A stretch of 64,000 bases of DNA from Pyrinomonadaceae bacterium (GCA_036507195.1 DASXQM010000273.1:1055-65054); one strand, 5' to 3'; positions 12,241 to 40,760 are shown, numbered from the stretch's first letter. Numbers and translations are program-made. The notes: generated by a model from the sequence alone, not told the origin.

Positions 12241-12276
12241 CGAAACTCGCTTGAGTTACCTCTGTGGTTTGAAATT

Positions 12277-12332
12277 GTTTAGAAAGGGGACTTGTCCCCA
12301 TGCGACGGGGGGCACAAGTGCCCTTTCTAAAC
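12277..12332. repeat. double-hairpin REP-like element GTTTAGAAA-GGGGACTTGTCCCC-n8-GGGGCACAAGTGCCC-TTTCTAAAC
   Basis: Read directly. Both hairpins and the inverted termini are near-perfect. Confidence 0.85.
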
Positions 12333-12353
12333 ATTCCGGTTACACACTCGGGA

Positions 12354-13124
12354 TTAATGCCAGAGCCGCCAGAGCATCGCAAACGTAATCACAAACCCAA
12401 TCGCCACGATTGCCCGGCGGATAGTAACTTGCGCTACCCGCACCGCCATGTGCGCTCCAAAGTAACCGCCAAGCGTGGCCGCACCGGCCATTATCAGGGC
12501 ATCAGGCCAGACAACGAGACCCATGAGCGCAAAGCTCAGCACCGCAATGCTGTTGATGCAAATGCCCAGGAAATTCTTAATTCCATTGGCGCGGTTGATG
12601 TTATGCAAACCGAGAAGTCCCATCGCCGCGAGCATCAGGATACCGTTTCCCGCGCCGAAGTAACCACCGTATATCGAGGAAAAGAATTGAAACACGATGG
12701 CGCCCAACCACCAGGACATTTTCGGTTCGGCGTCAATTGCTTGCAGGCGCAGACCGCGATTTATTGACCCCTGGGCCATGAAGAGGATGGTGGCGAAAAG
12801 AATCAGAAAGGGAACCAACCGATCAAATGTGACCGAGGGTGTCCAAATCAACAGCCAGGCCCCAAGTCCGCCGCCGATGACACTCGTGATCCCAAGTCGC
12901 AAGAGGATTGTCGAACTATTCTCCAGCTCACGTCGATAACCAAACAATCCGCCAAGGAGTCCGGGCCAGAGAGCAACAGTACTGGTGGCGTTGGCAACTT
13001 TGGGATCGAGACCAAGCCAAATAAGCACGGGAAAAGTAAAAAGTGTGCCGCCACCGGCAATGGCATTGATCAGACCCGCGGCGAAAGCCGCGGCGATCAT
13101 TATGAGCATGTTGGGGAGAGACAT
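12354..13124 (-). CDS. sulfite exporter TauE/SafE family membrane protein
   Basis: 256-aa polytopic protein with internally duplicated Gly-rich TM segments (AGLINAIAGGGTL...; YGGYFGAGNGILM). Confidence 0.8.
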   Translation of the reverse strand: MSLPNMLIMIAAAFAAGLINAIAGGGTLFTFPVLIWLGLDPKVANATSTVALWPGLLGGLFGYRRELENSSTILLRLGITSVIGGGLGAWLLIWTPSVTFDRLVPFLILFATILFMAQGSINRGLRLQAIDAEPKMSWWLGAIVFQFFSSIYGGYFGAGNGILMLAAMGLLGLHNINRANGIKNFLGICINSIAVLSFALMGLVVWPDALIMAGAATLGGYFGAHMAVRVAQVTIRRAIVAIGFVITFAMLWRLWH

Positions 13125-24715: not shown

Positions 24716-26692
24716 ATGCCCGAGTCTCGCACCGTGCCCTACGGTTCATGGAAATCGCCGATTACCTCCGACTCAATCGTCGGTGGTTCTATAGGTCTGT
24801 CCCAGCCCCTGATTGATGGTGCTGATGTTTACTGGGTTGAAATGCGTCCTACCGAAGCTGGCCGTAGCGTCATCGTGAAACGGAATGCGCTTGGCGTAGT
24901 AAACGATGTCACTCCGCCGCCCTTTAACGCGCGAACTCGGGTACACGAATATGGCGGCGGTGATTACACAGTGGGAGACGGCGCGGTTTACTTTTCAAAC
25001 TTTTCCGATCAGCGACTGTATGAGTGGAAAGGGGAAGCGGAGCCACAGGCAATTACTCCCGTCGCCGATCTTCGCTATGCGGACGCGGTTATTGATCGGA
25101 CGCGTGCGCGGTTAATCTGCGTTCGGGAAGACCACACGGTTGCTGGTCGCGAAGCAGTAAACACTTTGGTGGGCCTCAAACTCGTGGGGAATGAAATTCC
25201 GGCTGAGACAGGCGGAGTCTCGAACCGGGCAGCCCGGCAGGGGTGCTTGTTGGTATCGGGCAATGATTTCTATTCGTCGCCGCGTGTGAGCCCCGATGGC
25301 TCCCAGCTGGCATGGCTTACATGGAACCATCCCAATATGCCGTGGGATGGCAGTGAACTTTGGGTCGGCCGATTCGGGGTCGATGGATTATTAGAAACCA
25401 GTGAACGCGTGGCAGGCAGCACTGATGAATCAATCTTCCAGCCCGAATGGTCTCCCGAGGGCGTGCTTTATTTTGTTTCGGATCGAAGCGGCTGGTGGAA
25501 TCTTTACCGGATGAATTCAGATGGAAGCATTGAGCCGCTATGCGAAATGCAAGCTGAGTTTGGCATGCCCCAATGGGGCTTTGGCATGTCGACATATGCT
25601 TTCGAATCGGCCGAAAGAATTGTTTGCGCTTACATCGAAAACGGTATTTCGCGGCTTGCGCTGCTCGATACGCGCACGAAAAAGTTTGAACCGATCGTTT
25701 CTCCATACACGGACATAAGGTTTGTGCGCGCCTTGCCAGGGTATGCAGTGATGCGGGTCGGCTCGGCGACTGAAGCAGCCTCAATTGCAAAGCTTGATTT
25801 GGAAACGAGGACGTTCGAAGTACTTCGCCGCTCCAGCAGTCTTGAGATTGATGCAGCCTATCTCTCAACTCCGCGCGCCGTGGAGTTTCCTACCGAAGAT
25901 GGACGGACAGCCCACGGATTTTTTTATCCGCCGAAGAATCGCGAATACAACGCACCCGTTGGCGAGCGACCGCCGCTATTGGTCGAGAGCCATGGCGGAC
26001 CTACAGCCGCGGCGGCAACCGCTTTGAGTCTTCCTATTCAGTATTGGACCAGCCGAGGCATAGCCGTGCTGGATGTGAACTATGGCGGCAGCACCGGGTT
26101 TGGGCGTGCTTACCGGGAAAGATTGAAGGACAGGTGGGGAATCGTTGATGTTGACGATTGCGCCAACGGAGCACGCTACCTGGTTGGGCAAGGTGAGGTC
26201 GATGGAGATCGCCTGATGATCACGGGCGGAAGTGCCGGTGGTTACACTACGCTTTGCGCGCTCACCTTTCGCGATACGTTCAACGCTGGAGCGAGCCACT
26301 ATGGCGTCAGCGATGCCGAAGCCCTGGCAAAAGAGACGCACAAATTTGAATCGCGTTACCTTGATGGACTCATCGGGCCTTATCCGGAAAAGCGGGAGAT
26401 TTATGTTAAACGTTCGCCAATCAACTTCACGGAGCGGTTGTCTTGTCCGGTGATCTTCTTTCAGGGACTCGAGGACAAAGTAGTACCACCAAATCAGGCG
26501 CAGACGATGGTAGACGCACTGCGGGCGAAAGGAATTTCGGTCGCGTACCTTGCCTTCGAAGCGGAGCAGCACGGGTTTCGTCAGGCGAAGAACATCAAAC
26601 GTGCGCTTGACGGCGAACTCTATTTTTATTCCCGGGTGTTTGCTTTTGAGCTTGCGGAGCCGGTGGAACCGGTAGAGATTGATAATCTATAG
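24716..26692 (+). CDS. S9 family serine peptidase (prolyl oligopeptidase/dipeptidyl aminopeptidase-like) with N-terminal beta-propeller
   Basis: Catalytic Ser motif GGSAGGYT, downstream D and H region (GLEDKVVP...EQHGF), and a long N-terminal propeller-like region. Confidence 0.88.
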
Positions 26693-26758
26693 ATCTTGAG
26701 ATCTAAAATTTCAAATCTCAGCCTTAAAAGCGATCGCGGTATTCCCCTGACCGGACGC

Positions 26759-29227
26759 CTACTGCGCCGGCTGGTCCGCAATCGTCGCCGCTCCGCCGCC
26801 ATGATCGCCGCCGCGAAGCACCGAAGTTTCATCAATAAAGTAAGACAGCCGTCCAGACTCTCCATAGGTAACAGGCACGGCGATGGCCTCAAATCCCTTT
26901 CCCGAGATAGTCACCTCAATCCGGTAACCATATTTTTGCAGCATCTCCCTGTTGACAAGATTCTCCGCAATCAAGTCATCAAGAGAGCCGAAACGGCCGT
27001 CACCTTTCGTAGCCTGGTAAGTGGCTTCAGCGACCGCGATGGTACGCAAGGAGCTTTTCGCTACCGCTTCGTTGGTTTGGAGCGGCACCTGAGTCGCTTC
27101 GCTCGAAGCCTGGGCAATTATCATTTGCAGTAGATTCTTCGGCACATGCAACTCGTGAAGCGGACCTTGCCCTTCGTTGGTAAGTGCATAAGTGAGGGGG
27201 TCGATAACGGGGTTCACCCGGGACAAAAAGTCGCTCATGTTGTCATTGACTGGAGCGCCACTTCCAGCGGGAGAGATATATTGCCTGACCAGGCCCGGAG
27301 CGACATAAACCTGGCCAAGTACTTGTCGCGGCTGCCAACGTATGAAGTTCCTAAAGTGGCTATCGGATGAAAGCGTCTGATGGTTCACATAGGCATCTAC
27401 CACGTGTCGTGTGGCAGCGGCATCCGCCGACACGACCAGGAAATCCCCCAGGAAAGCGTAGGCTAAAACGTTTCCGTAGGAAGTGATTTCAGCTCCATCG
27501 CGCTTTTCAGTCTGAGCAAAGAGATTCGCGCCTTTGAATCCCAACGATTCAATAATCTTTGGTATTAGTCGGGCAACCGCTTCCCGGTCCTTAACCGAGA
27601 TGGCGATCACGGGAGAGGGATCAGCTGTTCGCGCATTTCTTTTCTCGCCGTCTTCTGGTGTGGGTTCTTCCGCGCCCGCGTTAAGTGGAGACGGCGTTGG
27701 ACTCGGCACTTTCTTTGCGAGCGCCAGAGCAAATTCATTTCCCAGCAGAGGCAGGAGGTCGTCTTTGATCTTCAAGCCAAGTTTCTTTTCATAGATTGCA
27801 AAAGGCGATTCGGGCGGTGAACTTTCTTTGACGGGTTGGTTTCGGTATTTTCTTGATTGCTCGTCTGCGTTGGCAATCGCCTTCACCATCCCGTCGTAAA
27901 CTTGCGGGTAATCGAGCGAAACGCTGACGAAGAGATCCGTGTCGGCAGGAAAAATATTGGGCGACTCCGGCACGAATGCCGGGCCGGAAACGAACTGGGG
28001 AACAAAAGGAATCGCATTGCTCTTGTTTTCGGCGCCATTGACTATCAACGTGCGAAGCACATAAGCATCGCCTTCAAAAACCACAGCCGCGCTAACCGCT
28101 TCCGGCCATTTGCTAACGCCGCCAAACAGAGCGCCATAAAGCGAGAACATCATTGGGCCCACTGCCTCCGTGGCGGGCTGTGGCTCGCTCGACAAGGTAG
28201 CGTTGCCGGATGGTTGCGGATCAGACGACGTCACTACCAGCGTGGGTTGCGAAGTTGACGATGGTTCCGGCTGTTGCTGCTCTGCGACCGTGGGTTCAGT
28301 CATCTCTGGCGCCAGATTGACGGGCGCCTGTTCTGCTTTCGGATTGGCGGTCTGGATCTCAATTTGTTTTTGTTCTTCCTCTTCCCACTTTTTCTGGCGC
28401 TCTTTCTCCTCCTTTTCAATCGACTTCAAGTCGACGTAGAGAAAGAGCGACTCAGACGCAAAACGATTTCGTGCCAGGGTGAAGTTCTGATCTTCTTCGA
28501 GCAACCTGCTGGCGGGCGGCCTTAGACTTCGAAACGTGAAGGCGGTATCGCTGATCAAAATCAGAGCGCCAGCCTGTTTCATCTGATAAGGGGACAGGGC
28601 CGGCGCATTTTCCTTTTCCGGAACGGTCCTTACGCTCCTGGTGGCTGTTCGAGAAACGGATGGCGGGTCGTTGATTCTCCCTTGTCCGCCGGTTGGACCA
28701 CTAGACGCAACGGTTGCCGGGCTCGGCGCCACCACTGGAATTGGGGACGCTGTTGGCGCAGGTGCAGGCGCCGGCAAAAGGGTGGGAAGAAAGCCGCGCA
28801 ACTCCGGGTAAAACTTCTTAGCCTCCTCTGGCGAAGAAAACTCTATAGCAACCAGAACGGTTGGAAGGTTGGGTCTTGACGGCCAACCTGCCACCAGCAT
28901 TCGTGAGCTGGCGAGCACGTCGGCGTGGGCGTTAAGCCATTTCACAAGGATCTTGAATTCTTTTGGCGGGCCACCGAGTTTCATCACCGGATCGAGTAGA
29001 TCATTAACCGCAGATGATCGGATCAATCCGCCAACGCCTCTTATCTCGCAATAGACTTTGTAACTGTCGGCGGAGAGCAGCGTTTCGAAAGTCGGAGAGG
29101 GTTCAGGGACTTCTGCCGGCGCCGGTTTCTTAGGCGCCGTATTACGTCTCTGTTGTGCGAGTAAAGGCGAGACGACAACCAGAAAAACGAGCAATAGTGT
29201 AATCAGGCGCTGAATTGATTTGAGCAT
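26759..29227 (-). CDS. large secreted protein, DUF3352-like, with Pro/Ala-rich linkers and a C-terminal pilin-like globular segment
   Basis: Signal peptide. LGNEFALAL and GDFLVVSAD segments parallel those in the anti-sigma C-terminal domain. C-terminal SLRTIAVAEATYQATKGDG resembles pilin head domains. Confidence 0.5.
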   Translation of the reverse strand: MLKSIQRLITLLLVFLVVVSPLLAQQRRNTAPKKPAPAEVPEPSPTFETLLSADSYKVYCEIRGVGGLIRSSAVNDLLDPVMKLGGPPKEFKILVKWLNAHADVLASSRMLVAGWPSRPNLPTVLVAIEFSSPEEAKKFYPELRGFLPTLLPAPAPAPTASPIPVVAPSPATVASSGPTGGQGRINDPPSVSRTATRSVRTVPEKENAPALSPYQMKQAGALILISDTAFTFRSLRPPASRLLEEDQNFTLARNRFASESLFLYVDLKSIEKEEKERQKKWEEEEQKQIEIQTANPKAEQAPVNLAPEMTEPTVAEQQQPEPSSTSQPTLVVTSSDPQPSGNATLSSEPQPATEAVGPMMFSLYGALFGGVSKWPEAVSAAVVFEGDAYVLRTLIVNGAENKSNAIPFVPQFVSGPAFVPESPNIFPADTDLFVSVSLDYPQVYDGMVKAIANADEQSRKYRNQPVKESSPPESPFAIYEKKLGLKIKDDLLPLLGNEFALALAKKVPSPTPSPLNAGAEEPTPEDGEKRNARTADPSPVIAISVKDREAVARLIPKIIESLGFKGANLFAQTEKRDGAEITSYGNVLAYAFLGDFLVVSADAAATRHVVDAYVNHQTLSSDSHFRNFIRWQPRQVLGQVYVAPGLVRQYISPAGSGAPVNDNMSDFLSRVNPVIDPLTYALTNEGQGPLHELHVPKNLLQMIIAQASSEATQVPLQTNEAVAKSSLRTIAVAEATYQATKGDGRFGSLDDLIAENLVNREMLQKYGYRIEVTISGKGFEAIAVPVTYGESGRLSYFIDETSVLRGGDHGGGAATIADQPAQ

Positions 29228-29396
29228 TTGAATTAAGAGTAACAGAACAAATGAACGACAAAAAGGAATTGCTTGTTCAGGTCTTGGTGCAGTTCATTGA
29301 AAGTGTCCGATAAACTTCAGAAACTTCTGATCAAGTGTCTTCGACGCTACGCATCGAAGATACTTAGTTTGCCGTGGCGTGATGACAAGCTAAGCC

Positions 29397-32177
29397 TCAC
29401 CTCGCCACTCGCCGCCAGACATTCGCTTCGCCTTCACTCGTAATTAGACGCTTGACCTCGCTGTATGCTGCTGCGTATGTGGCCCGCATGTCATTTGCCG
29501 ACTTTGCGAGTCTGTTGTCACTAAGATGCTTCTCAATCTCGTCTGTCGACATGCGCTGCCGGGGTTGGTAAGGCGCCACCAGCCGTCCCTCGCCCGCCAC
29601 ATGCAATGCCAAACCTTCAGCAAGCCAGCGCGGCGCGCGCCCCCGGCTAACAGTGTCGACTAAAGTATGTACGAGTTCATGGCGCAATGTTGTTTCGAGA
29701 ATTCGACGGCGCTTGAGAGTTTCAAGCGGTTGGAGCTCAATCCGACTTCCTTTTGTAGCCGCTGCCGCCCAGGCAGGTTGTCCTGTGCGACCAACAAAGT
29801 CGCCGGTCGTTTCGTTAATGAAGATTTGCAGAGCAGGGAATTGAGCGGTAATTCCAGCAGCGGCTACGCGCGCGACTAAAGATTCACGGGTCGACTGGAG
29901 AAAGCTTAGCAGTCCTTCAATCTCCCGTTGGCTCACAGTGTTCGGATAGTTAATGTGAAGGCCTTCGCTGGAGAGAGTGCGACGAATTGTCCTGCCGCTT
30001 TGACGTTTGGAAACGGGGCTTGGTTCCACATCAGATTCGCCAATGAAGTTGACTTTGTGGTTCCACATCAGATCCGCGGAAGCTGATGAACGATTTTCGT
30101 TAGCGATACGCGTCGAAGGAAAATACTTCGCGAGTATCTGCCGGTAATCTGTCCCGCGCGCCGCCATGACGTGCGCCCCTTCCTGACAAAGTCCCAGGCC
30201 GTGACCAAACCCACTGCCGCGAAATACGAAATTCGAACCAGAACGCGAAATCTTGAAACGCGAACTTTTAAGCAGGTTCCAACCAAGCGCACGGCCGATG
30301 ATGATTTTTAAGTCCCATCCTTTGACCGTGATTCGGCGATTGCCTTCCACGGTAATCACCTCGGCTCGACCACTGGCGTCGGTCCGTAACACACTTACGT
30401 CGAGAAGTCGCTCGCCAACGTTCGTCCGCGGATCAGATTGAAGCGCCTTGAGCATTTGCTTTTCGGAAATCACATCGGTCCAACTGTTGTGCGCCTCGCC
30501 TGCGCAGTACTCATCGTGTACGCCTCTCAGGTAAGAAGGCGCGTTACCACCCCACAGCGTCGCCATATTTGCAGTTGCCCCACCACACGAGGCGCTGAAG
30601 TAAGAATCAGCGAGTTCATCATTGCTATCACGCAGCACTTCGCCTTTAGTCGATTCGACCGCCTCGATAACCGCGGAGGAAGCACCCGCAAGCGAACCTG
30701 AATCAACCGATCGATATCTTTGGCAGTGGGTTGTGGTGCAGAAGTCGTAGCCATCCCTCCGGTGCCGGCCAAGATTTTTAAGGACATACGTGCGGCTGGC
30801 GACGGCCAGAGCTTTCAGTGCTTCGGGCTCGCTTTCCATGCTGCCCTCAGCCGCGACCACTCCGCGCACGTAGTCTTCAAGCGGCATTGAGCGAGTGACG
30901 TTTTCGCTAACGAGGTGAACAGTGATTGTTTGAGATTTCAAATTTGAAATCTCAGATTTCTCAACCGAGAGTTGAGATCTGAGATCTGAGATCTCAGATT
31001 GGGATCTGCCATCTGAGATCTCAGAATGTGCATAAGCATCGAAGATAGGTCGCGCGACTTCCGCGGCTTCGGAGCCATGAGCTTTCGCCAGAAAAACGAG
31101 TACAGCGAGCTTTACTCTTTCCGGCGCGAACTGCGATTCCTCTTTCGCGTCGTCATTCAATTGGGACGCAAAACCAACAAACCAACCCTGCGTGCGATAG
31201 CCGTTGAGCTCGGTGGCTGTACCCGTCTTGCCAAAAACATAAATTGGTAGTGAATAGAGGCTGGCCGTTTCGGCGGTGCCATAACGAACCGCGCCGCGCA
31301 TCCCTTTAAGAATCAAGCTTCGGTGGTCGTTGCTAATCATGAGGCGCGCCCGAAGTTGGGGAACAAAACCCGCCGCTGGGGCAATCCTGGGAGTAAATAG
31401 ATAACCTCCGTTCACTATGGCTAAATAAGCGTTGATGAGTTGAATGGGTGTGGCCCGTAGGTAATCGCCTTCGCCGATCGCATTCTGCGAGTGCCAGTCG
31501 CCGCGCCGCAGGAGGCCTTGCCCCTCGCGATCGGCGTTAACGCCGCTGGGTTTACCAAAGCCAAATTCGTTGAGGGTGGAATTAAAGTCAGACTCCGCCA
31601 GCCGCTCGCCCACTTTGCCGAAATAGTAGTTGCATGAATAAGCAATCGCCTCCGTCGGATTCAGAGGAGGCAAGTCGCGCGGGTGAGAACAGGTGGTATG
31701 AAAATCCTCGTGGGCATACTTTTCGCGGCACGCATTGCGTGATTCTTCGTCAATCACGCCGGAGCGCAGCGCGGCCAAGGCAGTGAAAGGCTTTATGGTC
31801 GAGCCGGCCGGAAGGTTTTCTCCGAAAGCAACTGTTGGGTTGACGACGGCGCGGACGCGTCCGGTTTGCGGATCCATAATTATGACCGCACCGCGTCGAT
31901 CGCCGAGGGCCAGCGTTGCCGCGCGTTGCAGACTCTGATCCAGGTTAGCCTCATAAATCGAGTCAGCCGATGAAGCTGATAAACTCGAATGCCGTGTGGC
32001 GTGGAGCACAATGGCCCAACCAAAAATCAAGACGCAGATTGTGACGGCGCCACAAACCAGCAGGCGCACGGGAGATCGAGCTACTTGTCCGGGGACCCTG
32101 CGTTGCAGGCTATCGCTTGCGATGCCTGCGCTCCCAGGATTTGCCATACCTGGTTTCAATGAAGGCTGCACCTGCAT
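29397..32177 (-). CDS. tri-domain envelope protein: penicillin-binding transpeptidase domain, SpoIID/LytB lytic transglycosylase domain and peptidase-MA-like HExxH domain
   Basis: N-terminal TM helix. TP motifs STIK, SCN and KTGT. SpoIID motifs ALKALAVASRTY, THCQRY, SASCGGAT and GHGLGLCQEGA. C-terminal HELVH...WLAEGLA. No GT51 motif. The ATG overlaps the upstream stop (TGATG). Confidence 0.8.
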   Translation of the reverse strand: MQVQPSLKPGMANPGSAGIASDSLQRRVPGQVARSPVRLLVCGAVTICVLIFGWAIVLHATRHSSLSASSADSIYEANLDQSLQRAATLALGDRRGAVIIMDPQTGRVRAVVNPTVAFGENLPAGSTIKPFTALAALRSGVIDEESRNACREKYAHEDFHTTCSHPRDLPPLNPTEAIAYSCNYYFGKVGERLAESDFNSTLNEFGFGKPSGVNADREGQGLLRRGDWHSQNAIGEGDYLRATPIQLINAYLAIVNGGYLFTPRIAPAAGFVPQLRARLMISNDHRSLILKGMRGAVRYGTAETASLYSLPIYVFGKTGTATELNGYRTQGWFVGFASQLNDDAKEESQFAPERVKLAVLVFLAKAHGSEAAEVARPIFDAYAHSEISDGRSQSEISDLRSQLSVEKSEISNLKSQTITVHLVSENVTRSMPLEDYVRGVVAAEGSMESEPEALKALAVASRTYVLKNLGRHRRDGYDFCTTTHCQRYRSVDSGSLAGASSAVIEAVESTKGEVLRDSNDELADSYFSASCGGATANMATLWGGNAPSYLRGVHDEYCAGEAHNSWTDVISEKQMLKALQSDPRTNVGERLLDVSVLRTDASGRAEVITVEGNRRITVKGWDLKIIIGRALGWNLLKSSRFKISRSGSNFVFRGSGFGHGLGLCQEGAHVMAARGTDYRQILAKYFPSTRIANENRSSASADLMWNHKVNFIGESDVEPSPVSKRQSGRTIRRTLSSEGLHINYPNTVSQREIEGLLSFLQSTRESLVARVAAAGITAQFPALQIFINETTGDFVGRTGQPAWAAAATKGSRIELQPLETLKRRRILETTLRHELVHTLVDTVSRGRAPRWLAEGLALHVAGEGRLVAPYQPRQRMSTDEIEKHLSDNRLAKSANDMRATYAAAYSEVKRLITSEGEANVWRRVAR
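30931..31026. repeat. gagatct/gaaatctc word-palindrome element embedded in frame in the fusion CDS
   Basis: tgagatttcaaatttgaaatctcagatttc...gagatctgagatctgagatctcagat... It encodes SEISDGRSQSEISDLRSQLSVEKSEISNLKSQ between the TP and SpoIID domains. Confidence 0.8.
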
Positions 32178-33004
32178 CAAGCCGCCTCATTTGCCGGCCC
32201 GGGTAACGGATTTGTCGATAATTGGGCCAGGGCACGCACAGTGATCGCCCAACCAAACAAAGTCAGGGCAAACACTACTACCAGCCGAACGATCAGCAAT
32301 GACAGCTCCAGCCAGGCATGCCTCGTTTGAGTGGTTTTGAAAAGCAGAAAGTAGGGAGCGACTCCGAAGACAAGAAAGCCGGCTATGTAAATAAGGACCG
32401 ACTGCGGCGCGAAAGCTCGCGCGAGATGTGTAATTGCCTTCTTCATAGCCGAGCCCAGCCCTTCATGCACAGTCGCGAGCCACAAGTGAATTGCCGCAAG
32501 CGGCAGGACGAGGCCGAAGGCCAGATAGCGAACAGTTGAAAGCAGTGCGAGTTTCCAATCGATCGGTCGCTCGGCGCGTGGCCGGTTAGCCGCCATGGCG
32601 ATTCGATGAGAAACATCCGGATCGGTGTTGTTAACGCCAACTCCCCAGCTGGCTTGCGCTTTTGCCAACAGATAAGCGATGAGAACCGCCAACGCGATTA
32701 GCGGTAAACTAACCAGGATCAACTTCCAGAAACTGGCGAGCGATCTTCTTAGCAGGGAGCTGACGGTCTCTCCGTCCGTTTGGCCGGCAACCATACTTTG
32801 GAGCACGAAGAAGAGCAGCGGTGCGGCAATCGCCAGCGCAAAAGTCAGGATCACCTGCCCGACGCTGGCTTCTCGAACTGCCACAAAGAAGTAAAGAGCC
32901 GCCAGCAGCGAAGCGTAAACAATTGCGAGTAGCAGCATCGCTCGCCAGTTTGTAAACACTTTGCGCGCGGCGGTGATGATTGAGTGGAATGTTTCAGTCA
33001 GCAT
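32177..33004 (-). CDS. polytopic membrane protein, function unknown
   Basis: About 6 hydrophobic helices. Preferred start is ATG 33004, 8 nt after GAGGA. The longer track ORF (to 33067) begins inside the REP element. Confidence 0.6.
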   Translation of the reverse strand: MLTETFHSIITAARKVFTNWRAMLLLAIVYASLLAALYFFVAVREASVGQVILTFALAIAAPLLFFVLQSMVAGQTDGETVSSLLRRSLASFWKLILVSLPLIALAVLIAYLLAKAQASWGVGVNNTDPDVSHRIAMAANRPRAERPIDWKLALLSTVRYLAFGLVLPLAAIHLWLATVHEGLGSAMKKAITHLARAFAPQSVLIYIAGFLVFGVAPYFLLFKTTQTRHAWLELSLLIVRLVVVFALTLFGWAITVRALAQLSTNPLPGPANEAA

Positions 33005-33033
33005 CAATTTGTCCTCGAAAAGAACAGCGACCA

Positions 33034-33105
33034 GTTTAGAAAGCGGACTTGTCCGCCCCTCGTTCACTTAGACGCAAAGCTCAGGCGGCTAAGTCCGCTT
33101 TCTAG
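33034..33105. repeat. double-hairpin REP-like element (GTTTAGAAA-GCGGACTTGTCCGC ... GCGGCTAAGTCCGC-TTTCTAG) inside the A2M operon spacer
   Basis: Read directly. Same architecture as the element at 12277-12332. Confidence 0.8.
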
Positions 33106-33136
33106 CGGAAGATCTTGTCGCGGAATGCGCGCTTTC

Positions 33137-36100
33137 TCATTTCCTCTCCAGGAAATCCAGCTTCCCGCTTGCAGTGTTCGACTGCGTGGCCGGCTTGTAC
33201 ATTAACTCGGCGCGTGCCGGCGCAACGCGAAACTGTCCCGGCACCTGGACGCGCAGCGCATATTGCAGTGTGTTGCCGCCGTCGAAGTAGTCCAGGAAAA
33301 AGACCGTCCGGTTATCGCGAAACTCACGGGAACTGTACCAGTCGGACCAGTCGTGACCGGAGGTGTAATCGAGATTCAGATTTCCGACGCTGTCAACCTG
33401 TTCTGCGCCGGCCGGAATCGGATCTTCGATCATCAAGTGACGCGCTTTCGCGCCGTTTAGTTTGAGCCTGACGACAAGCATGTCACCCGAATGAATCTCG
33501 CCGCGCAATGGTTCGGTCACCCACTTGAGTTTGTAGCCGTCTTCGACGACCTTGAGTCGAAGATATTCGCGGGTGAGATTCAACTCCGCCGAGCCGCGGG
33601 CCGCAACGTTCTCCTCCCCAGTGTAATAATCGAGCGATGACGAAAAATAGATCATGCCCTTGCCACGCTTGACGACTCGAATTTCATTCGTTCCGGTTAC
33701 CTCCCCAGCCTTGCGGTAGATGGAGAATGTTTGTGAAGCGGCTGCGGAGGAAACGTGCTGAGTAAGCACGTTTTCGCCGTTTAGGTAAACCTCCATGTCG
33801 TAATCGGGCGATAGTTCGCGACTCACTTTGAGGTAATCGATGAGTCCGAAAATCGCGAACGCCGTATCCTTCGTCGAAGACCAGTAATAACCTTTGCCAC
33901 GATTCGAAACCAGCCAGCGCGCGACTCGCGGCAGCAGTGCGCTGTCAGGCTTAATGCGAGCCAGCGCTCTTAACGAGAGCGCCGTTGCTTCCGTATCGTT
34001 TGATTCAGCAAAGTCGAGCATCGCTTTGCGGTGTGACTCCCAGTGGCCGGAGAAATCATCGGCCGCGACGGTTCGCTCAATCTCAGCGGCCACCTCACGC
34101 GCCCGCTTATCGTCCCGGCGTTGTTTCAAAGTCAACGCCAGCAGCGCGCGGCCATACGGTTGCAGGTTGCCGCGCTCGCCAAAGATCTTCTCAAGGTGAC
34201 GACTATCGGCGTCACCACTTTCTTCGAGCGCGTACACCATGAAGGCACGGGTTTCCAAATCGATCTGCGTTCCTGCTTCAGTCGTGCCCGAATCGAGCAT
34301 CTGTTTCAACTTCTCGCGTCCACTACTAATCCGATTATCGTCCACTTGATAATCGTTCTGTTTTGCCAGTGTCAGTCCACTGACAACGTATGCGGTCATA
34401 AAGGGATCGCTCTGGTCATCTTTCCACCAGCCCCAGCCGCCGTCGTTGTGCTGGTAGGCGTAGAGCCGATCCAAACCTTTTTGCACTTTCTTCGGAAGAT
34501 CGTTTGCGTTTCTTATCGACGACGTCTTCACGTCCTTCAACGCCTGCGAGACGATTACGTTGGGAAGAAAGCTCGACATCGTTTGCTCGGTGCAGCCGTA
34601 CGGATAAGTGGTGAGGTAATCGAGCGCGCCAAACAATGTGCTGGCGACGGAGGGCGCGACGTCGATTCGGAAACTACGCGCACGCGCATCGGCGCTCTGT
34701 GGCAGATTCAGAGAAAAAGTCTTCTCGGCATTCTCATCGGAGAACGCCGCTGACTCATTCTTAACTTGATGAAGGCCGCGCGGCACCACTATCAAGGGCA
34801 ACTCCACTGCGTCTGATTCGGTATCCGTGAGAGCTTTAGCGAGGAGCTTGATCTCGCCCACGTCTGGGGCAGAGATTTGCCAGTCAATGCGATGTTCGCC
34901 CTGTTTGCCGATCGTGACTGTCTGTTTCCCGGAATTCTGCAGTTGTGCTCCGTTAACCTCCAACGAAATCTGCGTTGGCTTATCAGCGTTTAGATAGTTG
35001 TGCACGATTCCCGACAGCGTGACCGTGTCACCCTGCGTAACAAAGCGGGGCGTCTCGAGTCGCATGATCACGTCCTTGCGCGCGACAACTTTGTATTTTG
35101 TGGCGCCAACCTTAGTGTCTGCCGTGACGCCGCGCGCGGTTGCGCGCCAGGTAGTTAAGTTGTCAGGCAGGTCAACCTTGACGGTGGCACGCCCGTCAGC
35201 GCCCGTCACCACGTCGGGCTGCCAGAAGGCGGTGTCTTTGAAGTTTTTCCTGATAGTCGGTTGCACCAGATCCCCTTCATTCTTAAAGTCGGCAAGCTGG
35301 TAGGCCGGCTTGTTCTTCGCGAGATCGATGGGTTTATCGCCCGCGAAGCCGGTGAACATGTAGCTGATTGAAAGATGCGTTTCGACGCTGTTATACCGCA
35401 TGCCATAAAACTCGGTCTTGATGTTGCCCGAGTAATCGGGCGAGACGCTGTAAATGCTTTCATCGACCACGCCAAGACTGACTTCGGCCCCGGACACCGG
35501 CGCGCCATCGGCATTACGTGCCAGGATCGTATAAGACGCCGTCTCGCGGGGCTTGTACTCCTTCTTGTTCGAGATGATTTCGAGATTCAGCATCTTGTCG
35601 CGCGCGGGCACGACCAGCCGCTGATCGCTCGTATACATGTCGCCGCCTTTAACGTAAGAAACATTGAGAAATACGTTGGGCGCATAACTAGCCTGGATGG
35701 GAATGTCGAGCACGATTGATCTGCCGGGCGAGCTGACGTGCTGGACAGACATCACCGTCGTCAGTTCGGTGCTGACCAGGAGGTGAGCATTGTCAGTCGG
35801 CAGGATCGCCAAAACGTGAGCAGTCTCGCCGGGTTTGTACGACTTCTTATCGGCGACGAGCTTTATTGAATTGTAATCTTCGCTGTAGTAGGAAGAATCG
35901 GACCATGGGTATTGCCGGTCGGTAACCCAGAGATAGCCGCCAATTGAAGCCACCGGCCGGCCGTTCTCATAGATCACCGTCTTAATCGAAATGTTGCCGT
36001 CCTCAGTGGTTGTGTAGTCGTAGATGGCCTGGCCTTGCGAGTCAGTCTGTGCGTCGGCGTAAGCTATCTGGCGCTCATGCATTTCATACTCTGGATAGGA

Positions 36101-38071
36101 ATACTCGTCATCCTCCGCCTGCTTTTCCTTTTTGGTCCAGGTGCGCTCAACGAACTGTAATTGAACTTTCGTGGAGACTGGCCGCCCTTCATAATCGGTT
36201 GTCGTTACATGGATCTTGGCGATGTCCCCTTTGTTGTAGACGTAACGATCGGGGTTGGCGTTCGCAACGATGGTGCCACGAGTGGCGACAAAGCTCGCGG
36301 CGCCTTCAATGGTCCGACGAGCCGAGTCCGTCACCTGGGCTTCGAGACGATAGCTGTAATCGAATGTGTCGGTCTCTTCTGTTTGCGGGACCTGGAACTC
36401 GACATTCATGTGGCCACGTGCGTCGAGAGTGCCCTCGCTCTCCTGCACCATGTCGTCGCCACCCCTATAGAATTGCGAATAGTCATCCTCAGTCTCCGAC
36501 TCGTCACTTGTTTCGCCAGAATCGTCCATACCGATCCCCCAGGCGTAATACCGTGAGCGATAGATGTAATACTTCACTTCCGCATTGGCGACAGGCGAAC
36601 CGAAGAAATAGCGCGCGTCGACAGAAAAATTGGCTTTCTGGCCGGCTTGCACAAATTTTCCCGGTGCTAAAACTGTCACCTTATATTCCGGCTTCTTATA
36701 TTCCGCGACTTCGAAACTGCCGCCCGCGGTGCCGCCGCCAACTTCCGCGGCGATGCGATAGCTGCCCAGCGGCGCCGCTTCCGCAATGTCTATCTCGCCG
36801 TTGAAGGTGCCCCGAGGAGAAATCGGCAGTTCTTTGTTGAAAATGTTAGCCCCGTTTGGATCTTCAATGGTAACGTTCACAGTGTCGTCCGTGATGGCTT
36901 TGTATGCTCCGTTATCATCGACGGCGCGAACGATTCCTTTGAAACTGACTTTATGAGTTGGTCGATAAACGGGACGATCGGTGTAGATGTACCCCTTGAT
37001 GTTCTCGCCGTCTTCATCTTCATAGTAACCGCCGAAATACATTGAGCCGAGATCGGAGATTGCAAAGTTGTTGCTCTGTTTGGCAAGAATCAGCAGAGAC
37101 TCGGAATCAGTTTCCTCCGGCGCCGCGGCCTCCGCATCAGCCTCCACGCCACCGCCCTCATTGCCGGCGTCTGCTGCAGGCTTTTTCTTTTCGACCTTCG
37201 TTCTCAGAATGCCCTGATTGTCTGTGACGCCCGAGGCAACGGTCTTTTTCTCTTTCACGATTTCGACCTGTGCCCCCGGTCGCGGCTCACCGGTTTTGCG
37301 GTCCACCGTGTAAATGAGCAGTTCTCCGTCGCGAGTGGTCTTGTCGATCATGGTCAAGTCAGTGACCACCACTACCGTGTAAGCACGCAAATCATTCTCA
37401 ACTGCTTCGATCAGGTAGACGCCCGGCGACCGTTTGCCTAACGGAATCATGCGCTGCTCATATTCGTCTTCCAGCGGCGGCAAAGGCTCGCGCCAACTAC
37501 TGACGAGCAGATCGGGATTCAGCAATGGCACGCGAGCGTAGTCGGAAACATTCAGTGGCGTTCGGATTGGGTCTGCTTCCTTGCGAAATTTTTGATTAAA
37601 CGTCTGGCGCGAATCGTGCTGAAGCTGTCCCCGGACGAACGTTTTGATACCTGAGTAGGCCCAACGCTTAAGACCGCGCACCTTTTCCAGAAACGATTTA
37701 CGATGTGGCAATGAGGTGGCAACCTCTTCCTCTTCATGTTCTCCCATCTGATGAGGATTCTTGAGTTGGGTGAAGAACTTGCGCGGATCCTTCACCTGAT
37801 AAACGCGGAAGTCCAGATGGTCGACACCCTGGTAGTCGACCCACAGGCGGGCGTTGTCGCTGGTGCCATAAGTGCGATGAGTTGACAGCGAAAAATAAGG
37901 CTTGCTCGAGGGGCGCCTTTCGGCTCCGGAATAAACTGGCTCTGTATTGGTTTCCGGCTTCAGTTTTGCGCGCGACCGGAGCGTGGCAATGGTGAGCGCG
38001 CCGGCAATGGCCACGAGATAAATTAAAGAAGTGGTCAGGGCGCGATAAGAACGAGAGTTCATTTCAAACAC
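33137..38071 (-). CDS. alpha-2-macroglobulin family protein with intact thioester, membrane-anchored
   Basis: 1644 aa. Thioester motif YPYGCTEQTMSS (CTEQ at 34583-34594). N-terminal TM anchor, repeated MG-like domains, and a C-terminal receptor-binding-like domain. Confidence 0.9.
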   Translation of the reverse strand: MFEMNSRSYRALTTSLIYLVAIAGALTIATLRSRAKLKPETNTEPVYSGAERRPSSKPYFSLSTHRTYGTSDNARLWVDYQGVDHLDFRVYQVKDPRKFFTQLKNPHQMGEHEEEEVATSLPHRKSFLEKVRGLKRWAYSGIKTFVRGQLQHDSRQTFNQKFRKEADPIRTPLNVSDYARVPLLNPDLLVSSWREPLPPLEDEYEQRMIPLGKRSPGVYLIEAVENDLRAYTVVVVTDLTMIDKTTRDGELLIYTVDRKTGEPRPGAQVEIVKEKKTVASGVTDNQGILRTKVEKKKPAADAGNEGGGVEADAEAAAPEETDSESLLILAKQSNNFAISDLGSMYFGGYYEDEDGENIKGYIYTDRPVYRPTHKVSFKGIVRAVDDNGAYKAITDDTVNVTIEDPNGANIFNKELPISPRGTFNGEIDIAEAAPLGSYRIAAEVGGGTAGGSFEVAEYKKPEYKVTVLAPGKFVQAGQKANFSVDARYFFGSPVANAEVKYYIYRSRYYAWGIGMDDSGETSDESETEDDYSQFYRGGDDMVQESEGTLDARGHMNVEFQVPQTEETDTFDYSYRLEAQVTDSARRTIEGAASFVATRGTIVANANPDRYVYNKGDIAKIHVTTTDYEGRPVSTKVQLQFVERTWTKKEKQAEDDEYSYPEYEMHERQIAYADAQTDSQGQAIYDYTTTEDGNISIKTVIYENGRPVASIGGYLWVTDRQYPWSDSSYYSEDYNSIKLVADKKSYKPGETAHVLAILPTDNAHLLVSTELTTVMSVQHVSSPGRSIVLDIPIQASYAPNVFLNVSYVKGGDMYTSDQRLVVPARDKMLNLEIISNKKEYKPRETASYTILARNADGAPVSGAEVSLGVVDESIYSVSPDYSGNIKTEFYGMRYNSVETHLSISYMFTGFAGDKPIDLAKNKPAYQLADFKNEGDLVQPTIRKNFKDTAFWQPDVVTGADGRATVKVDLPDNLTTWRATARGVTADTKVGATKYKVVARKDVIMRLETPRFVTQGDTVTLSGIVHNYLNADKPTQISLEVNGAQLQNSGKQTVTIGKQGEHRIDWQISAPDVGEIKLLAKALTDTESDAVELPLIVVPRGLHQVKNESAAFSDENAEKTFSLNLPQSADARARSFRIDVAPSVASTLFGALDYLTTYPYGCTEQTMSSFLPNVIVSQALKDVKTSSIRNANDLPKKVQKGLDRLYAYQHNDGGWGWWKDDQSDPFMTAYVVSGLTLAKQNDYQVDDNRISSGREKLKQMLDSGTTEAGTQIDLETRAFMVYALEESGDADSRHLEKIFGERGNLQPYGRALLALTLKQRRDDKRAREVAAEIERTVAADDFSGHWESHRKAMLDFAESNDTEATALSLRALARIKPDSALLPRVARWLVSNRGKGYYWSSTKDTAFAIFGLIDYLKVSRELSPDYDMEVYLNGENVLTQHVSSAAASQTFSIYRKAGEVTGTNEIRVVKRGKGMIYFSSSLDYYTGEENVAARGSAELNLTREYLRLKVVEDGYKLKWVTEPLRGEIHSGDMLVVRLKLNGAKARHLMIEDPIPAGAEQVDSVGNLNLDYTSGHDWSDWYSSREFRDNRTVFFLDYFDGGNTLQYALRVQVPGQFRVAPARAELMYKPATQSNTASGKLDFLERK

Positions 38072-38115
38072 GGTCGCAGCCTCCTTCGGGCCAGTAAAGA
38101 TCCAACCTGGGAAAG

Positions 38116-39057
38116 TCAGTCGAGGATTTTCAATCTAAAGTAGCCGAGGAAATTGGAATTACTTTCCGTCGGCCGCCAGCGTCTGTTTGGGTGATGATCG
38201 AGAACCGCAAGCTCAACCTTCTTTACCGTTCCTTCGTCGGTCGGCGAGGAGCCGGTGTGATAGACCACCCAGCCGCTTGAGCGGTCGGTGCTCAGCTTTG
38301 CCCGTCCGAGGAAAATCATTACGTGGTAGGGAAATTTCTGCACCCAGGGCTGGTAGAAAAAGAGAAGATCGCCCGCTTCGGCGAAACGGCGATCGCGACT
38401 AATGAATTTGGCGTTGAAGCTTTTGAGACTGCGTGCGTCGGCGAATTCCGAAAAGGTTCCGTTAGACAGATCGCCATCTTTATATGAGCCGAAACTGGTG
38501 CGGAAGAGTTTTTCGCCCAGCGGGCTCTGCTCGAGGTTGTAGCGGGCAATATCAGGTGCGATCGCCGTGAAGCCCGGGCCCATCTTTTGAAACCATACGC
38601 GATCGTGACGACGCAGGGCTTCCCGCCAGGCAAAGCGTACCAGCCCGGCGCAGTCTCTTTGCTCCGCATTCCATTGATCGCTCAAATGGTAAAACTGTAC
38701 TTCGGCGATCAACGTGAACCACTGGCGAAAATTCTCGCGGTCCATAAAACTCTGCAGCTCAGCGGCGTCAGGTATGCCGTCGTTGTCCGAATCCAACGAA
38801 ACGGAATGTGTTGAGGAGTTGGTCGTGGCGTGGTTGTAAAGCGCGGAGTTCTTGCTCGTATGCCTGAGGTTCGCGGAGTATTCAGTTTTCCGGTTCCTGG
38901 CCAGAGAGAAGTAAGATGCCAGGAAAACGAGAATGAAACAAAGCAGTAGCGCTACACCAAACTGTCGCCGTTTTATTAACGCGAGCATGGGGGAATTATT
39001 GGTCCTGGTTGATAACTCTACGAGGCGGCGCTTAACAGTCGGCGGCCATGTTAACAC
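38116..39057 (-). CDS. DUF1175 / MagC(YfaT)-like NlpC/P60-fold protein
   Basis: DCAGLVRFAWREALRRHD (NlpC/P60-like Cys), PYHVMIFLG (His), VVYHTG, and an N-terminal TM helix plus a DSDNDGIPD Ca-binding-like motif. Start is either GTG 39057 or ATG 38988. Confidence 0.7.
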   Translation of the reverse strand: MLTWPPTVKRRLVELSTRTNNSPMLALIKRRQFGVALLLCFILVFLASYFSLARNRKTEYSANLRHTSKNSALYNHATTNSSTHSVSLDSDNDGIPDAAELQSFMDRENFRQWFTLIAEVQFYHLSDQWNAEQRDCAGLVRFAWREALRRHDRVWFQKMGPGFTAIAPDIARYNLEQSPLGEKLFRTSFGSYKDGDLSNGTFSEFADARSLKSFNAKFISRDRRFAEAGDLLFFYQPWVQKFPYHVMIFLGRAKLSTDRSSGWVVYHTGSSPTDEGTVKKVELAVLDHHPNRRWRPTESNSNFLGYFRLKILD

Positions 39058-39172
39058 GTCCCCCTTCGCGGTCTGGCACGGATCAAGTTACTGTGGCTAT
39101 CCACAGTGGACATGGCCTCGTAGCCTGGCAGTTCCGACGGCCACGCCTGGCCACTCGCTTATTACGTCTCCC

Positions 39173-39224
39173 GTTTCGAGAGGGCACTTGTGCCCCACCG
39201 GGCGGACAAGTCCGCTCTCTAAAC
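39173..39224. repeat. double-hairpin REP-like element (GTTTCGAGA-GGGCACTTGTGCCC-n6-GCGGACAAGTCCGC-TCTCTAAAC)
   Basis: Read directly. Lies upstream of the A2M cluster. Confidence 0.85.
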
Positions 39225-39437: not shown

Positions 39438-39623
39438 GTGCCGACTGGAACATGTCCCGAGTGTGATGCTGATGTCCATGTGGATACGGACACTGATAAA
39501 GGCGAAAGCGTTTCCTGTGAGGAATGCGGTACCGAACTTGAAGTAGTCGGACTCGATCCGGTAGAGCTGGACATCGTGGAAGAAGAAGACCTGGACGACG
39601 ACGAGGACGAAGACGAATTCTGA
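39438..39623 (+). CDS. LysW-like zinc-ribbon protein with acidic tail (amino-group carrier protein family-like)
   Basis: GTG start follows GGAGGTAAGGA. GTCPECDADV...GESVSCEECGTELEVVGLDPVELD matches the LysW/ArgW CPxC...CxxCG...LEVV pattern. The tail is EEEDLDDDEDEDEF. Confidence 0.7.
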   Translation: MPTGTCPECDADVHVDTDTDKGESVSCEECGTELEVVGLDPVELDIVEEEDLDDDEDEDEF

Positions 39624-39629
39624 AAGAAT

Positions 39630-39719
39630 ATTAGGCAGTAAGCAGAATGCAGTAGGCAGAAACCAGCTTCCTCAATCGGGATTAGTTTTCTGCCTACTGC
39701 ATTCTGCTTACTGCCTAAT
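39630..39719. terminator. perfect 33-bp inverted repeat with a 24-nt loop. Probable bidirectional terminator between convergent genes.
   Basis: attaggcagtaagcagaatgcagtaggcagaaa (39630-39662) pairs with its exact reverse complement (39687-39719). A T-run follows on both strands. The right arm overlaps the last 4 codons (stop included) of the VWA gene. Confidence 0.6.
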
Positions 39720-40760
39720 GTTTTTCCCGTCCGCCTGAAAACCCGGACGACTTTGCCGCAGAGTTAACCCGCCAGGGCCATCAACTCTAATATTGTGAAA
39801 CTGGCCATCACGGCGCTTCTGCTCCGGCGGATAAAAAGCCAGCACGTACGCCGAAGTAACCTCCTCAGCCAGCGCGCGAAATAACGCATCGTAGTTATTC
39901 TCGTCTGCGTAGACGCTTCTGCCGCCCGTTAAGTCGGCCAGTCCACTCACATCCAAAGGCGTCGGCAGAGGAGTTTGCGTTGAGGCAGGCAACATTCGTG
40001 AATAAGACGGCAGAGTCACCACGTATATGCTGGCGTCGGCGGCATTCGCTCGCTCGATGACTGTGCGTGCTGACACCGTGTCGCCAACAGGAAAACCATC
40101 AGTCACGACCAGCACCGCGCGTTTCATCAGACGCCGTTCGCGTGTGCGCGGAGCATGACGCACAAGCAGGCGAATGGCGTCGTCAACGGCATCGTAAGTG
40201 TGGGTTGAGAGTCCATTTGGCTCGCGCGCTATACGTTCAAAGGCGCGATCGAGTTTGTCTGCCGCGGAGGTAAACTTCTGCTGAACCTTTACGTTCATAC
40301 CGAAAGACATGACAGCGTACAGAGCAGGATGGTCGGCAAGCTTCGCCGAGAATGCGCTCAGCGCGCTTCTTAGACGCTCCATCTCCTCTGCCGTCATGCT
40401 TCCCGAAATGTCGAGTGCAAACACCACCGCTAAGGGACGAGGCTCACCGCTGCGTCGCTCGACCTGAAAAAACGAAAGCGGCTGCTCGATACCATCTACG
40501 TACAGCTTGAAATCTTCCTGCCTGAGACTTCGTATCGGACGGCCTTCAATATCATTGGCGACAACGTCCAGAGAAACCAGATCAGTATCGATCTTCACGA
40601 CATCGTCGGGCTCTTGCTCACTTCTCGGGAACACCTGCCGGGGGCGCTGTGCTTTGGGATTGGATTCCTGGGCCAGGCTCGACGGTAAAGTCGTCCCACC
40701 AAAAAGAGAGATGATAGTCAGGAAACCCATCAGTTTACTGGAGTACCGAATCTTAATCAT
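39708..40760 (-). CDS. secreted von Willebrand factor A (VWA) domain protein
   Basis: Signal peptide and MIDAS motif DISGSMT, within VWA-like alpha/beta sequence. Confidence 0.8.
   Translation of the reverse strand: MIKIRYSSKLMGFLTIISLFGGTTLPSSLAQESNPKAQRPRQVFPRSEQEPDDVVKIDTDLVSLDVVANDIEGRPIRSLRQEDFKLYVDGIEQPLSFFQVERRSGEPRPLAVVFALDISGSMTAEEMERLRSALSAFSAKLADHPALYAVMSFGMNVKVQQKFTSAADKLDRAFERIAREPNGLSTHTYDAVDDAIRLLVRHAPRTRERRLMKRAVLVVTDGFPVGDTVSARTVIERANAADASIYVVTLPSYSRMLPASTQTPLPTPLDVSGLADLTGGRSVYADENNYDALFRALAEEVTSAYVLAFYPPEQKRRDGQFHNIRVDGPGGLTLRQSRPGFQADGKNIRQ

Follow-up and report, generated by a model that had tools for sequence, protein, structure and literature searches.

Bacterial alpha-2-macroglobulins (A2Ms) have been described in two contexts, in which type I proteins bear a thioester and adjoin pbpC, and type II proteins are thioester-less and belong to the six-gene mag operon (PMC5764988); an earlier note on the DNA studied here had set out the same scheme. 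Purified A2Ms of both types trap exogenous proteases (PMC5764988). ECAM-type A2Ms carry a lipobox Cys, which MagD is without, and MagD is cleaved in vivo within its own complex (PMC3735191), and the MagC/DUF1175 protein is a peptidoglycan binder (PMC10318531); the biology of the Mag complex drawn on below comes from the first two of these studies (PMC3735191, PMC5764988). The locus in question lies in a 64,000-nt stretch of DNA from a Pyrinomonadaceae bacterium (DASXQM010000273.1:1055-65054; the whole stretch is termed the window) and encodes a MagC-like protein, an A2M with an intact thioester, a membrane protein with six hydrophobic segments, a fusion of transpeptidase (TP), SpoIID and HExxH domains, and a DUF3352 protein. 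The locus is very probably a variant of the Mag/Yfa-type operon and, judged by sequence, is better described as a thioester-retaining, enzyme-complete form of that operon than as a third, unrelated module.

The five open reading frames (ORFs) span 26759-39057 on the minus strand and are co-directional, and all encode envelope products, with signal or anchor sequences in 5/5. They follow one another in the order MagC/DUF1175 protein (g1), A2M (g2), six-transmembrane (6-TM) protein (g3), TP-SpoIID-HExxH fusion (g4) and DUF3352 protein (g5), with a gap of 44 nt between g1 and g2, of 132 nt between g2 and g3 when counted from the g3 ATG at 33004 (69 nt when counted from its GTG), a TGATG stop/start overlap formed by the g3 stop and the g4 ATG at 32177, and a gap of 169 nt between g4 and g5. 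The ORF calls reproduce the five co-directional genes and every one of the four junction figures given in the earlier note, and the profile searches that it had called for place DUF1175, the A2M domains, Transpeptidase, SpoIID and DUF3352 above their cut-offs and Peptidase_MA_2 below. The window has a G+C content of ~54%, and its nearest genome relatives are metagenome-assembled genomes of Pyrinomonadaceae/Blastocatellia, phylum Acidobacteriota; Escherichia coli genomes gave zero matches to the region by megablast. Promoter and terminator scans of the locus returned matches fewer than, or no more than, those in shuffled sequence.

The product of g1 (38116..38988, minus strand) is MagC/YfaT-like. 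Its longest ORF occupies 38116-39057 from a GTG at 39057, and the likely start is the ATG at 38988, from which the protein has 290 aa, the length found in relatives, and an N-terminus bearing a hydrophobic anchor or signal. The protein matches Pfam DUF1175 with 219.8 bits (E 4e-65), the MagC structure (7BK8) with E 1e-23 and E. coli YfaT at 33% identity (E 2e-30). Residues Cys113 and His222, numbered from the ATG at 38988, are invariant, and the identity first proposed for this gene, a MagC-like protein of NlpC/P60 fold with Cys and His retained, is borne out.

The A2M gene, g2 (33137..38071, minus strand), encodes 1644 aa with MG2, A2M_BRD (the bait region), A2M, TED and bMG10 domains, each above its Pfam cut-off, and with PDB matches to TEP1, A2M, Sa-A2M and ECAM. 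The intact CTEQ thioester motif reported in the earlier note is found at exactly the same coordinates (34583..34594, minus strand; aa 1160-1163, context YPYGCTEQTMSS). Alignment by tblastn yields 265 summed bits against yfaS (E 2e-39), covering aa 54-500 and 735-1644, and 116 bits against yfhM/ECAM (E 7e-14) with just 575 aa aligned, and the N-terminus (MNSRSYRALTTSLIYLVAIAGALTIATL), a signal or anchor, has zero Cys and so is without the lipobox Cys. Because the alignment to YfaS is better and fuller than that to YfhM, and because the lipobox Cys is absent as in MagD, g2 appears to be a YfaS/MagD-lineage protein that kept its thioester, an assignment based on pairwise alignment scores against yfaS and yfhM rather than on a tree. 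At the aligned thioester site, E. coli YfaS reads PWGGVINT and g2 reads PYGCTEQT. The yfaS score likewise exceeds the yfhM score in tblastn comparisons of 15 further A2Ms, comprising 10 from loci verified to have a neighbouring MagC gene and 5 others, diverse and thioester-bearing, taken by sequence alone from the L093-derived set described next. Among related metagenome loci with sequence at the site, 26/26 retain the thioester, as do 7 distant linked loci, and it is intact in all 120 A2Ms retrieved with the A2M of locus L093 (CVEQ) as query, including those of the distant loci L097, L098 and L099 discussed below; the taxa named among the 120 include Acidobacteriota, Myxococcota, Deltaproteobacteria, WOR-3, Bacteroidota, Ca. 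Deferrimicrobium and Leptospira.

The fusion encoded by g4 (29397..32180, minus strand) is a bitopic protein of 927 aa in which an N-terminal transmembrane helix (~aa 39-60) precedes three domains. The TP domain (aa 97-340; 31161..31892, minus strand; PF00905, 5.9e-42, 144 bits) displays the motifs S127-T-I-K130, S182-C-N184 and K318-T-G320, and its best NCBIfam match is the TP domain of PBP2/MrdA (TIGR03423, E 2.4e-42). No Pfam match to GT51/Transgly was found in this or any other cluster protein, and the PBP_1c model (TIGR02073) does not match g4. The SpoIID/LytB lytic-transglycosylase-type domain (aa 427-693; 30102..30902, minus strand) scores 190 bits with TIGR02669 (E 7e-56) relative to a cut-off of 83.3 and 84 bits with Pfam SpoIID, and it matches the SpoIID structures 4RWR and 5I1T with E about 1e-25 (3.5e-25 for 4RWR). 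Glu445 occupies the SpoIID catalytic position, which is Glu in 53/53 homologues. The C-terminal region (~aa 730-927; 29400..29993, minus strand) holds the gluzincin-like motif H834-E-L-V-H838 with E855, and none of these four residues (H834, E835, H838, E855) varies among 27 diverse sequences whose identity falls as low as 24%. An AlphaFold2 (AF2) model of this domain has a predicted local distance difference test score (pLDDT) of 91.9, and its best Foldseek matches are the M9 collagenase, M61, M1 and M30 peptidase domains (probability ~1.0, TM-score ~0.5); these invariant ligands, the model and the structural matches to gluzincins support a gluzincin-like assignment of the predicted domain despite its weak Pfam score. 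Among 53 diverse g4 homologues the motifs are nearly always kept: SxxK is found in 52, all 53 have both the S and the C of SCN, at least 51 have KTG, and HExxH is present in 50 and the third-ligand Glu in 51. The three-part architecture first read from the sequence is therefore retained, two parts by profile scores above cut-off and the HExxH part by invariant residues and the AF2 fold match. A classification of g4 as a class B penicillin-binding protein (PBP) was considered and rejected: the TP domain and its three motifs are present, the protein is without a PBP dimerisation-domain match, and the equivalog models score far below their cut-offs.

A separate observation concerns the linker between the TP and SpoIID domains (~aa 385-420, SEISDGRSQSEISDLRSQ...SEISNLKSQ), which is encoded by tandem palindromic DNA with TCTGAGATCTCAGA units at 30929-31025. 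A related copy lies at 26702-26722, in the intergenic space between g5 and a convergent S9 peptidase gene, and the matches number 10 where 0.03 are expected. These sequences may record the in-frame capture of a small palindromic repeat by the coding linker of g4.

The relation of g4 to the type II protein MagE/YfaQ bears on the reading of this locus. E. coli YfaQ, which belongs to COG5445, itself scores 27 bits with Pfam SpoIID, above the cut-off of 23, and BLASTP of g4 against YfaQ gives E 8e-4. A profile of 53 g4-family sequences aligns to YfaQ by hhalign with a probability of 95% and E 3.9e-8, and with a relaxed alignment threshold aa 44-864 of g4 are colinear with residues 6-545, the whole of YfaQ. 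Motifs pair along this alignment, in the TP part as GSTIK/GSLWK and SCN/SCG, and from the SpoIID part onward as VVAAEG/VLDREA, YRQILAKYFP/YDQILAFAYP and HELVH/HEYLH; domain-by-domain tests of g4 against YfaQ agree with the full-length alignment. Given this colinear match with its paired motifs, and given that YfaQ passes the SpoIID cut-off, g4 is, as far as sequence comparison can tell, the long, motif-intact counterpart of MagE/YfaQ and no replacement of PBP1C. The Pfam DUF2300 model does not match g4. Another way to account for the match at the YfaQ N-terminus, by taking DUF2300 for a SpoIID half, was not supported, as the SpoIID profile misses YfaQ 1-300 and the TP profile matches that same segment (E 3.5e-4). 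In E. coli K-12 yfaQ (L004, 4149-5798), HEYLH falls in the second DUF2300 copy, and GSLWK and SCG fall in the first, a distribution from which the annotation "tandem DUF2300" may hide decayed transpeptidase-like and metallopeptidase-like modules.

The product of g3 (32177..33004, minus strand) is a polytopic membrane protein of ~275 aa with six hydrophobic segments by hydropathy, in agreement with the polytopic protein that the earlier note had placed after the A2M; its longest ORF covers 32177-33067 from a GTG start, and the likely start is the ATG at 33004, as in relatives. Neither g3 nor any of 19 homologues belongs to a Pfam family, no similarity of g3 to SpoIIM is detectable, and a single-sequence structure model (pLDDT 57) was too poor for a fold search. 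Its position between the A2M and MagE-like genes is conserved in Acidobacteriota, and six-TM proteins of 235-271 aa occupy it in L007, L009, L091, L092, L094 and L095. The product of g5 (26759..29227, minus strand), an 822-aa protein with a long low-complexity linker, scores 38.4 bits with DUF3352 (cut-off 26.8, E 8e-10) and has a signal-peptide-like N-terminus, in keeping with the secreted 822-aa protein proposed earlier. Neither BLASTP nor hhalign finds a significant match between g5 and E. coli YfaA, and no cluster protein matches DUF2138, the family of MagB/YfaA, which is the membrane-anchored stabiliser of the type II operon. From its distribution in the sequences compared, g5 is taken to be a lineage-specific accessory confined to the closest relatives. 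The g5 homologue occurs as one ORF in the window and L003, and as two consecutive ORFs in L002 (12849-15312) and L005 (13202-15734), the N-terminal one of ~430-570 aa and the C-terminal one, which is pilin-like, of ~270-420 aa, and these split copies may reflect either real fission or assembly frameshifts.

Conservation of the gene order was surveyed in 80 soil-metagenome loci, with counts restricted to loci having enough sequence. These loci came from a metagenome scan with a MagC alignment, which gave relatives 56-90% identical and so serves the linkage counts and not an estimate of breadth. The A2M gene directly follows MagC in 57/57 close-relative loci, and among those with room the next gene is g3 in 18/18, g4 in 16/16 and g5 in 4/10; close relatives retain the gene order of the window. 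A search of genome contigs with g4 found 3 close loci. At E <= 0.001, a wider search of the whole library recovered 30,802 proteins, many by way of a single TP or SpoIID domain; all three domains are present in 64 of the top 150 cluster representatives, and all of the checked representatives that bear a taxon name belong to Acidobacteriota, among them Vicinamibacterales.

Linkage persists in more distant loci in which the arrangement itself has changed. In L007, L009, L091 (Vicinamibacterales) and L092 the fusion (31-36% identity) is convergent to the MagC, A2M and 6-TM genes, and the flanks differ, and in L094 and L095 two overlapping genes, one for TP and one for SpoIID-HExxH, take the place of the fusion. 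In L093, which has MagC and whose A2M has CVEQ, a clear YfaP homologue (E 2e-25) lies between the A2M gene and that for TP-SpoIID. Outside named Acidobacteriota the sampling comprises three contexts. In the Myxococcota locus L097, MagC, A2M, YfaP-like and kinase genes are followed by consecutive TP, SpoIID and 257-aa MA-peptidase-like genes, the last of which matches the C-terminus of g4 (E 3e-11); as these three genes equal the three domains of g4, they stand in a Rosetta-stone relation to it. The Leptospira wolffii locus L098 has genes for MagC, A2M, YfaP_C and TP, together with one for a 604-aa protein that fits no known family, and neither a SpoIID nor an MA-peptidase-like gene was detected in it. 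L099 encodes MagC, A2M and a fusion of TP, SpoIID and C-terminal parts, near which a YfaP-like gene lies on the opposite strand. The 604-aa neighbour in L098 and a 436-aa neighbour in L099 have no similarity to the g4 domains or to YfaQ. A core of MagC, thioester A2M, TP, SpoIID and MA-peptidase, joined by a 6-TM or YfaP-like protein, is accordingly linked in several acidobacterial lineages, Myxococcota and, short of the two genes missing from L098, Leptospira, with the enzyme parts fused, split or on the opposite strand. The co-conservation that the earlier note had asked of a neighbourhood survey holds in close and distant lineages alike, and the module is abundant in soil metagenomes, spread over several phyla and not rare. 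Ser/Thr kinase genes also occur within the cluster in L097 (13348-14874) and directly after it in L099 (16451-20196), which hints at signalling control.

How these proteins might act together can be sketched from the activities of their domain families and from work on Mag and ECAM. The A2M would be held with its partners at the inner membrane or in the periplasm, where a foreign or stray protease would, on cleaving the bait region, be trapped covalently through the thioester, and the MagC-like NlpC/P60-fold protein would tether the complex to peptidoglycan. The membrane-anchored, MagE-like g4 would then remodel or repair the wall locally after trapping. The glycan strands on which SpoIID acts have already lost their peptides, which is reason to expect a peptidase coupled to the SpoIID domain; the metallopeptidase domain, and possibly MagC too, would strip or trim stem peptides, the SpoIID-type lytic transglycosylase would remove the denuded glycan, and the transpeptidase domain would re-crosslink or trim D-Ala-D-Ala termini. 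The 6-TM protein would serve as a membrane scaffold in the place occupied by YfaP-like proteins in other phyla, and the DUF3352 protein is possibly analogous to MagB. That the TP, SpoIID and MA-peptidase parts act together is suggested by their fusing and splitting across phyla, and that they act with the trap by their persistent linkage to MagC and A2M. This coupling of trapping to repair is plausible, at odds slightly short of even. Taken as a whole, with the identity of the operon and its mechanism combined, the proposed reading is somewhat favoured.

Several observations weigh against this reading. DUF1175 proteins have been described as catalytically inactive although Cys and His are conserved (PMC10318531). 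In Pseudomonas aeruginosa, MagE is cytoplasmic and did not co-purify with MagD (PMC3735191), so a physical A2M-MagE complex is hypothetical even in that organism. None of the five window cluster proteins matches DUF2135 (YfaP/MagA/MagF), and where the type II operon has DUF2135 and DUF2138 proteins the window has 6-TM and DUF3352 proteins. The gene upstream of magC in Myxococcota, in the position of MagB, scores 25.9 bits with DUF3352, just below the cut-off of 26.8, and its resemblance to g5 is weak (hhalign E 0.003, probability 11%). Peptidase_MA_2 gives 14.7-18.2 bits with the C-terminus of g4, below the Pfam cut-off of 32.4. In L096 (P0254) an 825-aa TP-SpoIID-HExxH homologue (10001-12478) lies beside dnaX, ybaB and recR, and an A2M is absent from the 10 kb around it; linkage is therefore not universal. 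Finally, the 132- and 169-nt gaps, the hairpin in the A2M-g3 spacer and the convergent arrangement elsewhere mean that a single transcript is not required.

These same gaps and hairpin would suit separate transcripts, and together with the L096 fusion that has no neighbouring A2M they could be taken to mean that the genes adjoin by chance or synteny and have no functional connection. Such an account is highly improbable, as the linkage outlasts inversion, gene fission and fusion, differing flanks and phylum boundaries, and the three Myxococcota genes correspond to the three domains of g4. The earlier note had itself suggested a third, undescribed module, in which a thioester A2M is combined with the partner of the thioester-less type and a GT51-less fusion replaces PBP1C; on that reading the A2M would be of type I (ECAM-like), beside a type II MagC, in a module independent of both contexts. 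The ingredients of this proposal are real, in that the thioester, the MagC partner and a TP domain without GT51 are all present and the literature describes just two A2M contexts, but the proposal is now unlikely. The pairing of a CTEQ-bearing A2M with MagC stands; the A2M, however, is nearer YfaS than YfhM over its full length (265 vs 116 bits) and lacks the ECAM lipobox Cys, and so is itself of the type II lineage rather than a thioester protein beside a foreign partner. Similarly, GT51 is absent and the TP-SpoIID-HExxH fusion is present as stated, but its TP domain fits PBP2/MrdA models (TIGR03423, 2e-42) and not PBP_1c, and as the fusion is homologous to the type II operon's own MagE/YfaQ no swap from the pbpC context is needed. 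What survives of the claim to novelty is that a thioester-bearing, enzyme-complete Mag/Yfa form, common in public sequence, is undescribed in the open-access literature searched, where macroglobulin and SpoIID appear together in an unrelated proteome list only; that form is a widespread variant of the Mag/Yfa operon and no third, unrelated module.

A more serious competitor, though still improbable, is that the TP, SpoIID, metallopeptidase and MagC proteins make up a housekeeping wall-remodelling machine resembling SpoIID/SpoIIP/SpoIIM of sporulation, within which the A2M is an internal regulator or safety trap for the machine's own peptidase or for endogenous periplasmic proteases. That a SpoIID-type enzyme is conserved together with a peptidase and a polytopic membrane protein would fit such a machine, as would the Ser/Thr kinases inside or beside the L097 and L099 clusters, carriers that are free-living soil bacteria and not host colonisers, and the in vivo cleavage of MagD within its complex (PMC3735191). 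Against it, an intact bait region and thioester mark a broad protease trap, and exogenous proteases are trapped by both types of bacterial A2M once purified (PMC5764988). That soil Acidobacteriota carry the cluster in such abundance suggests that it serves in competition among microbes rather than in colonising a host.

A tentative evolutionary proposal, held at slightly less than even odds, is that the ancestral and widespread form of Mag/Yfa is the thioester-bearing A2M cluster linked to MagC, with TP, SpoIID and gluzincin enzymes that are active, and that the proteobacterial type II system, with its thioester-less MagD/YfaS and compact MagE/YfaQ, is a decayed derivative. Were this true, MagE/YfaQ would be a remnant peptidoglycan enzyme, and the coupling of trapping to wall repair would be general to bacterial A2Ms and independently realised with PBP1C in type I. 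The two traits that define the types, thioester and operon partners, are separable, and in both lineages the A2M is found beside peptidoglycan enzymes. MagE/YfaQ, one of the type II partners so far without an assigned activity, gains a concrete and testable identity as a PBP-like, SpoIID-like and metallopeptidase-like protein, and the long-standing idea of trapping the protease and repairing the wall becomes directly testable, with Leptospira wolffii, which carries a related cluster, as a cultured entry point.

The spacers of the operon contain palindromic elements of their own. A hairpin in the A2M-g3 spacer (33034..33104) has 21-nt arms at 33037-33057 and 33084-33104 that are 90% complementary, and the arm at 33034-33058, a 25-nt palindrome-containing element, carries the core GCGGACTTGTCCGC. 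A reverse-complement copy of this element, 96% identical (GGGCGGACAAGTCCGCTCTCTAAAC; 39200..39224), lies ~210 nt upstream of the g1 ATG, and the core GCGGACWWGTCCGC occurs exactly 2 times in the 64-kb window where 0.11 occurrences are expected. In relatives the GTTTAGARAGCGGACTTGTCCGC element, with a GTTTAGA flank and in either orientation, is found upstream of g1, in the g1-A2M spacer or in the A2M-g3 spacer, and L005 holds the palindrome core in the same A2M-g3 spacer; no copy lies outside operon spacers in the ~0.9 Mb of relatives' loci examined. As its position and orientation vary among relatives, the element looks like a repetitive extragenic palindromic (REP) sequence. The REP element that the earlier note had placed in the 132-nt spacer thus corresponds to an inverted, REP-like pair, one arm of which has a second copy at 39200-39224, and in the loci examined its repetition is confined to the spacers of this operon. 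A second palindrome, of the GGGCACAAGTGCCC type, often comes after the GTTTAGARAGCGGACTTGTCCGC element (window 39200-39224 and 33034-33104; L005, L011, L015, L028, L030 and L076).

The genes flanking the cluster lie on other strands or are separated from it by terminator-like structures. Upstream is a VWA-domain protein of an acidobacterial family (TIGR03436; 39708-40760, minus strand), and beyond g5, convergent to it, lies an S9-family peptidase (24716-26692, plus strand), followed by a 905-aa protein (21608-24325, plus strand) that scores 122.8 bits with the F510_1955 glycosylhydrolase model, below the cut-off of 175. The VWA and S9 peptidase genes are found in the same places in the relative L005, and in L002 these places are taken by ORFs of corresponding size. 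A divergent/antisense ORF of 61 codons (39438-39623, plus strand), which separates the cluster from the VWA gene, resembles a LysW-type zinc-ribbon amino-group carrier (CPECGA...CEECG, acidic tail), and its equivalent in L005 carries Pfam Zn_ribbon_LysW. Between this ORF and the VWA gene, a 39-nt inverted repeat (39624-39662 / 39687-39725, 95% complementary, 24-nt loop) looks, by its sequence, like a strong bidirectional terminator hairpin.

Set beside known systems, the cluster recalls three. With the SpoIID-SpoIIP-SpoIIM engulfment machine of Bacillus and Clostridioides it shares a SpoIID domain with its catalytic Glu, a peptidase and a polytopic membrane protein, and it differs in coming from a non-spore-former, in having a gluzincin-like peptidase instead of the SpoIIP amidase and in coupling the set to an A2M and MagC. 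With the type I systems (E. coli ECAM/YfhM and Salmonella Sa-A2M with pbpC) it shares the CxEQ thioester, the bait region, a similar length of the A2M (1644 vs 1653 aa) and a neighbouring penicillin-binding-type transpeptidase domain; the window A2M, however, is less similar to these proteins than to YfaS, the lipoprotein Cys and GT51 are absent, MagC is present, and the TP domain is PBP2-like and fused to SpoIID and metallopeptidase domains rather than part of PBP1C. The closest likeness is to the type II operon (P. aeruginosa magABCDEF; E. coli yfaA-yfaT-yfaS-yfaQ-yfaP), in which three homologous genes follow the same C-D-E order, the A2M is likewise without a lipobox and the products are likewise destined for the envelope, and YfaP/MagF-like genes are found in the sister loci L093 and L097-L099. 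Whereas YfaS/MagD is without the thioester and YfaQ is a protein of 549 aa in which no KTG could be aligned, the window A2M keeps CTEQ and g4, at 927 aa, has a transmembrane anchor and intact SxxK/SCN/KTG, SpoIID Glu and HExxH-E motifs.

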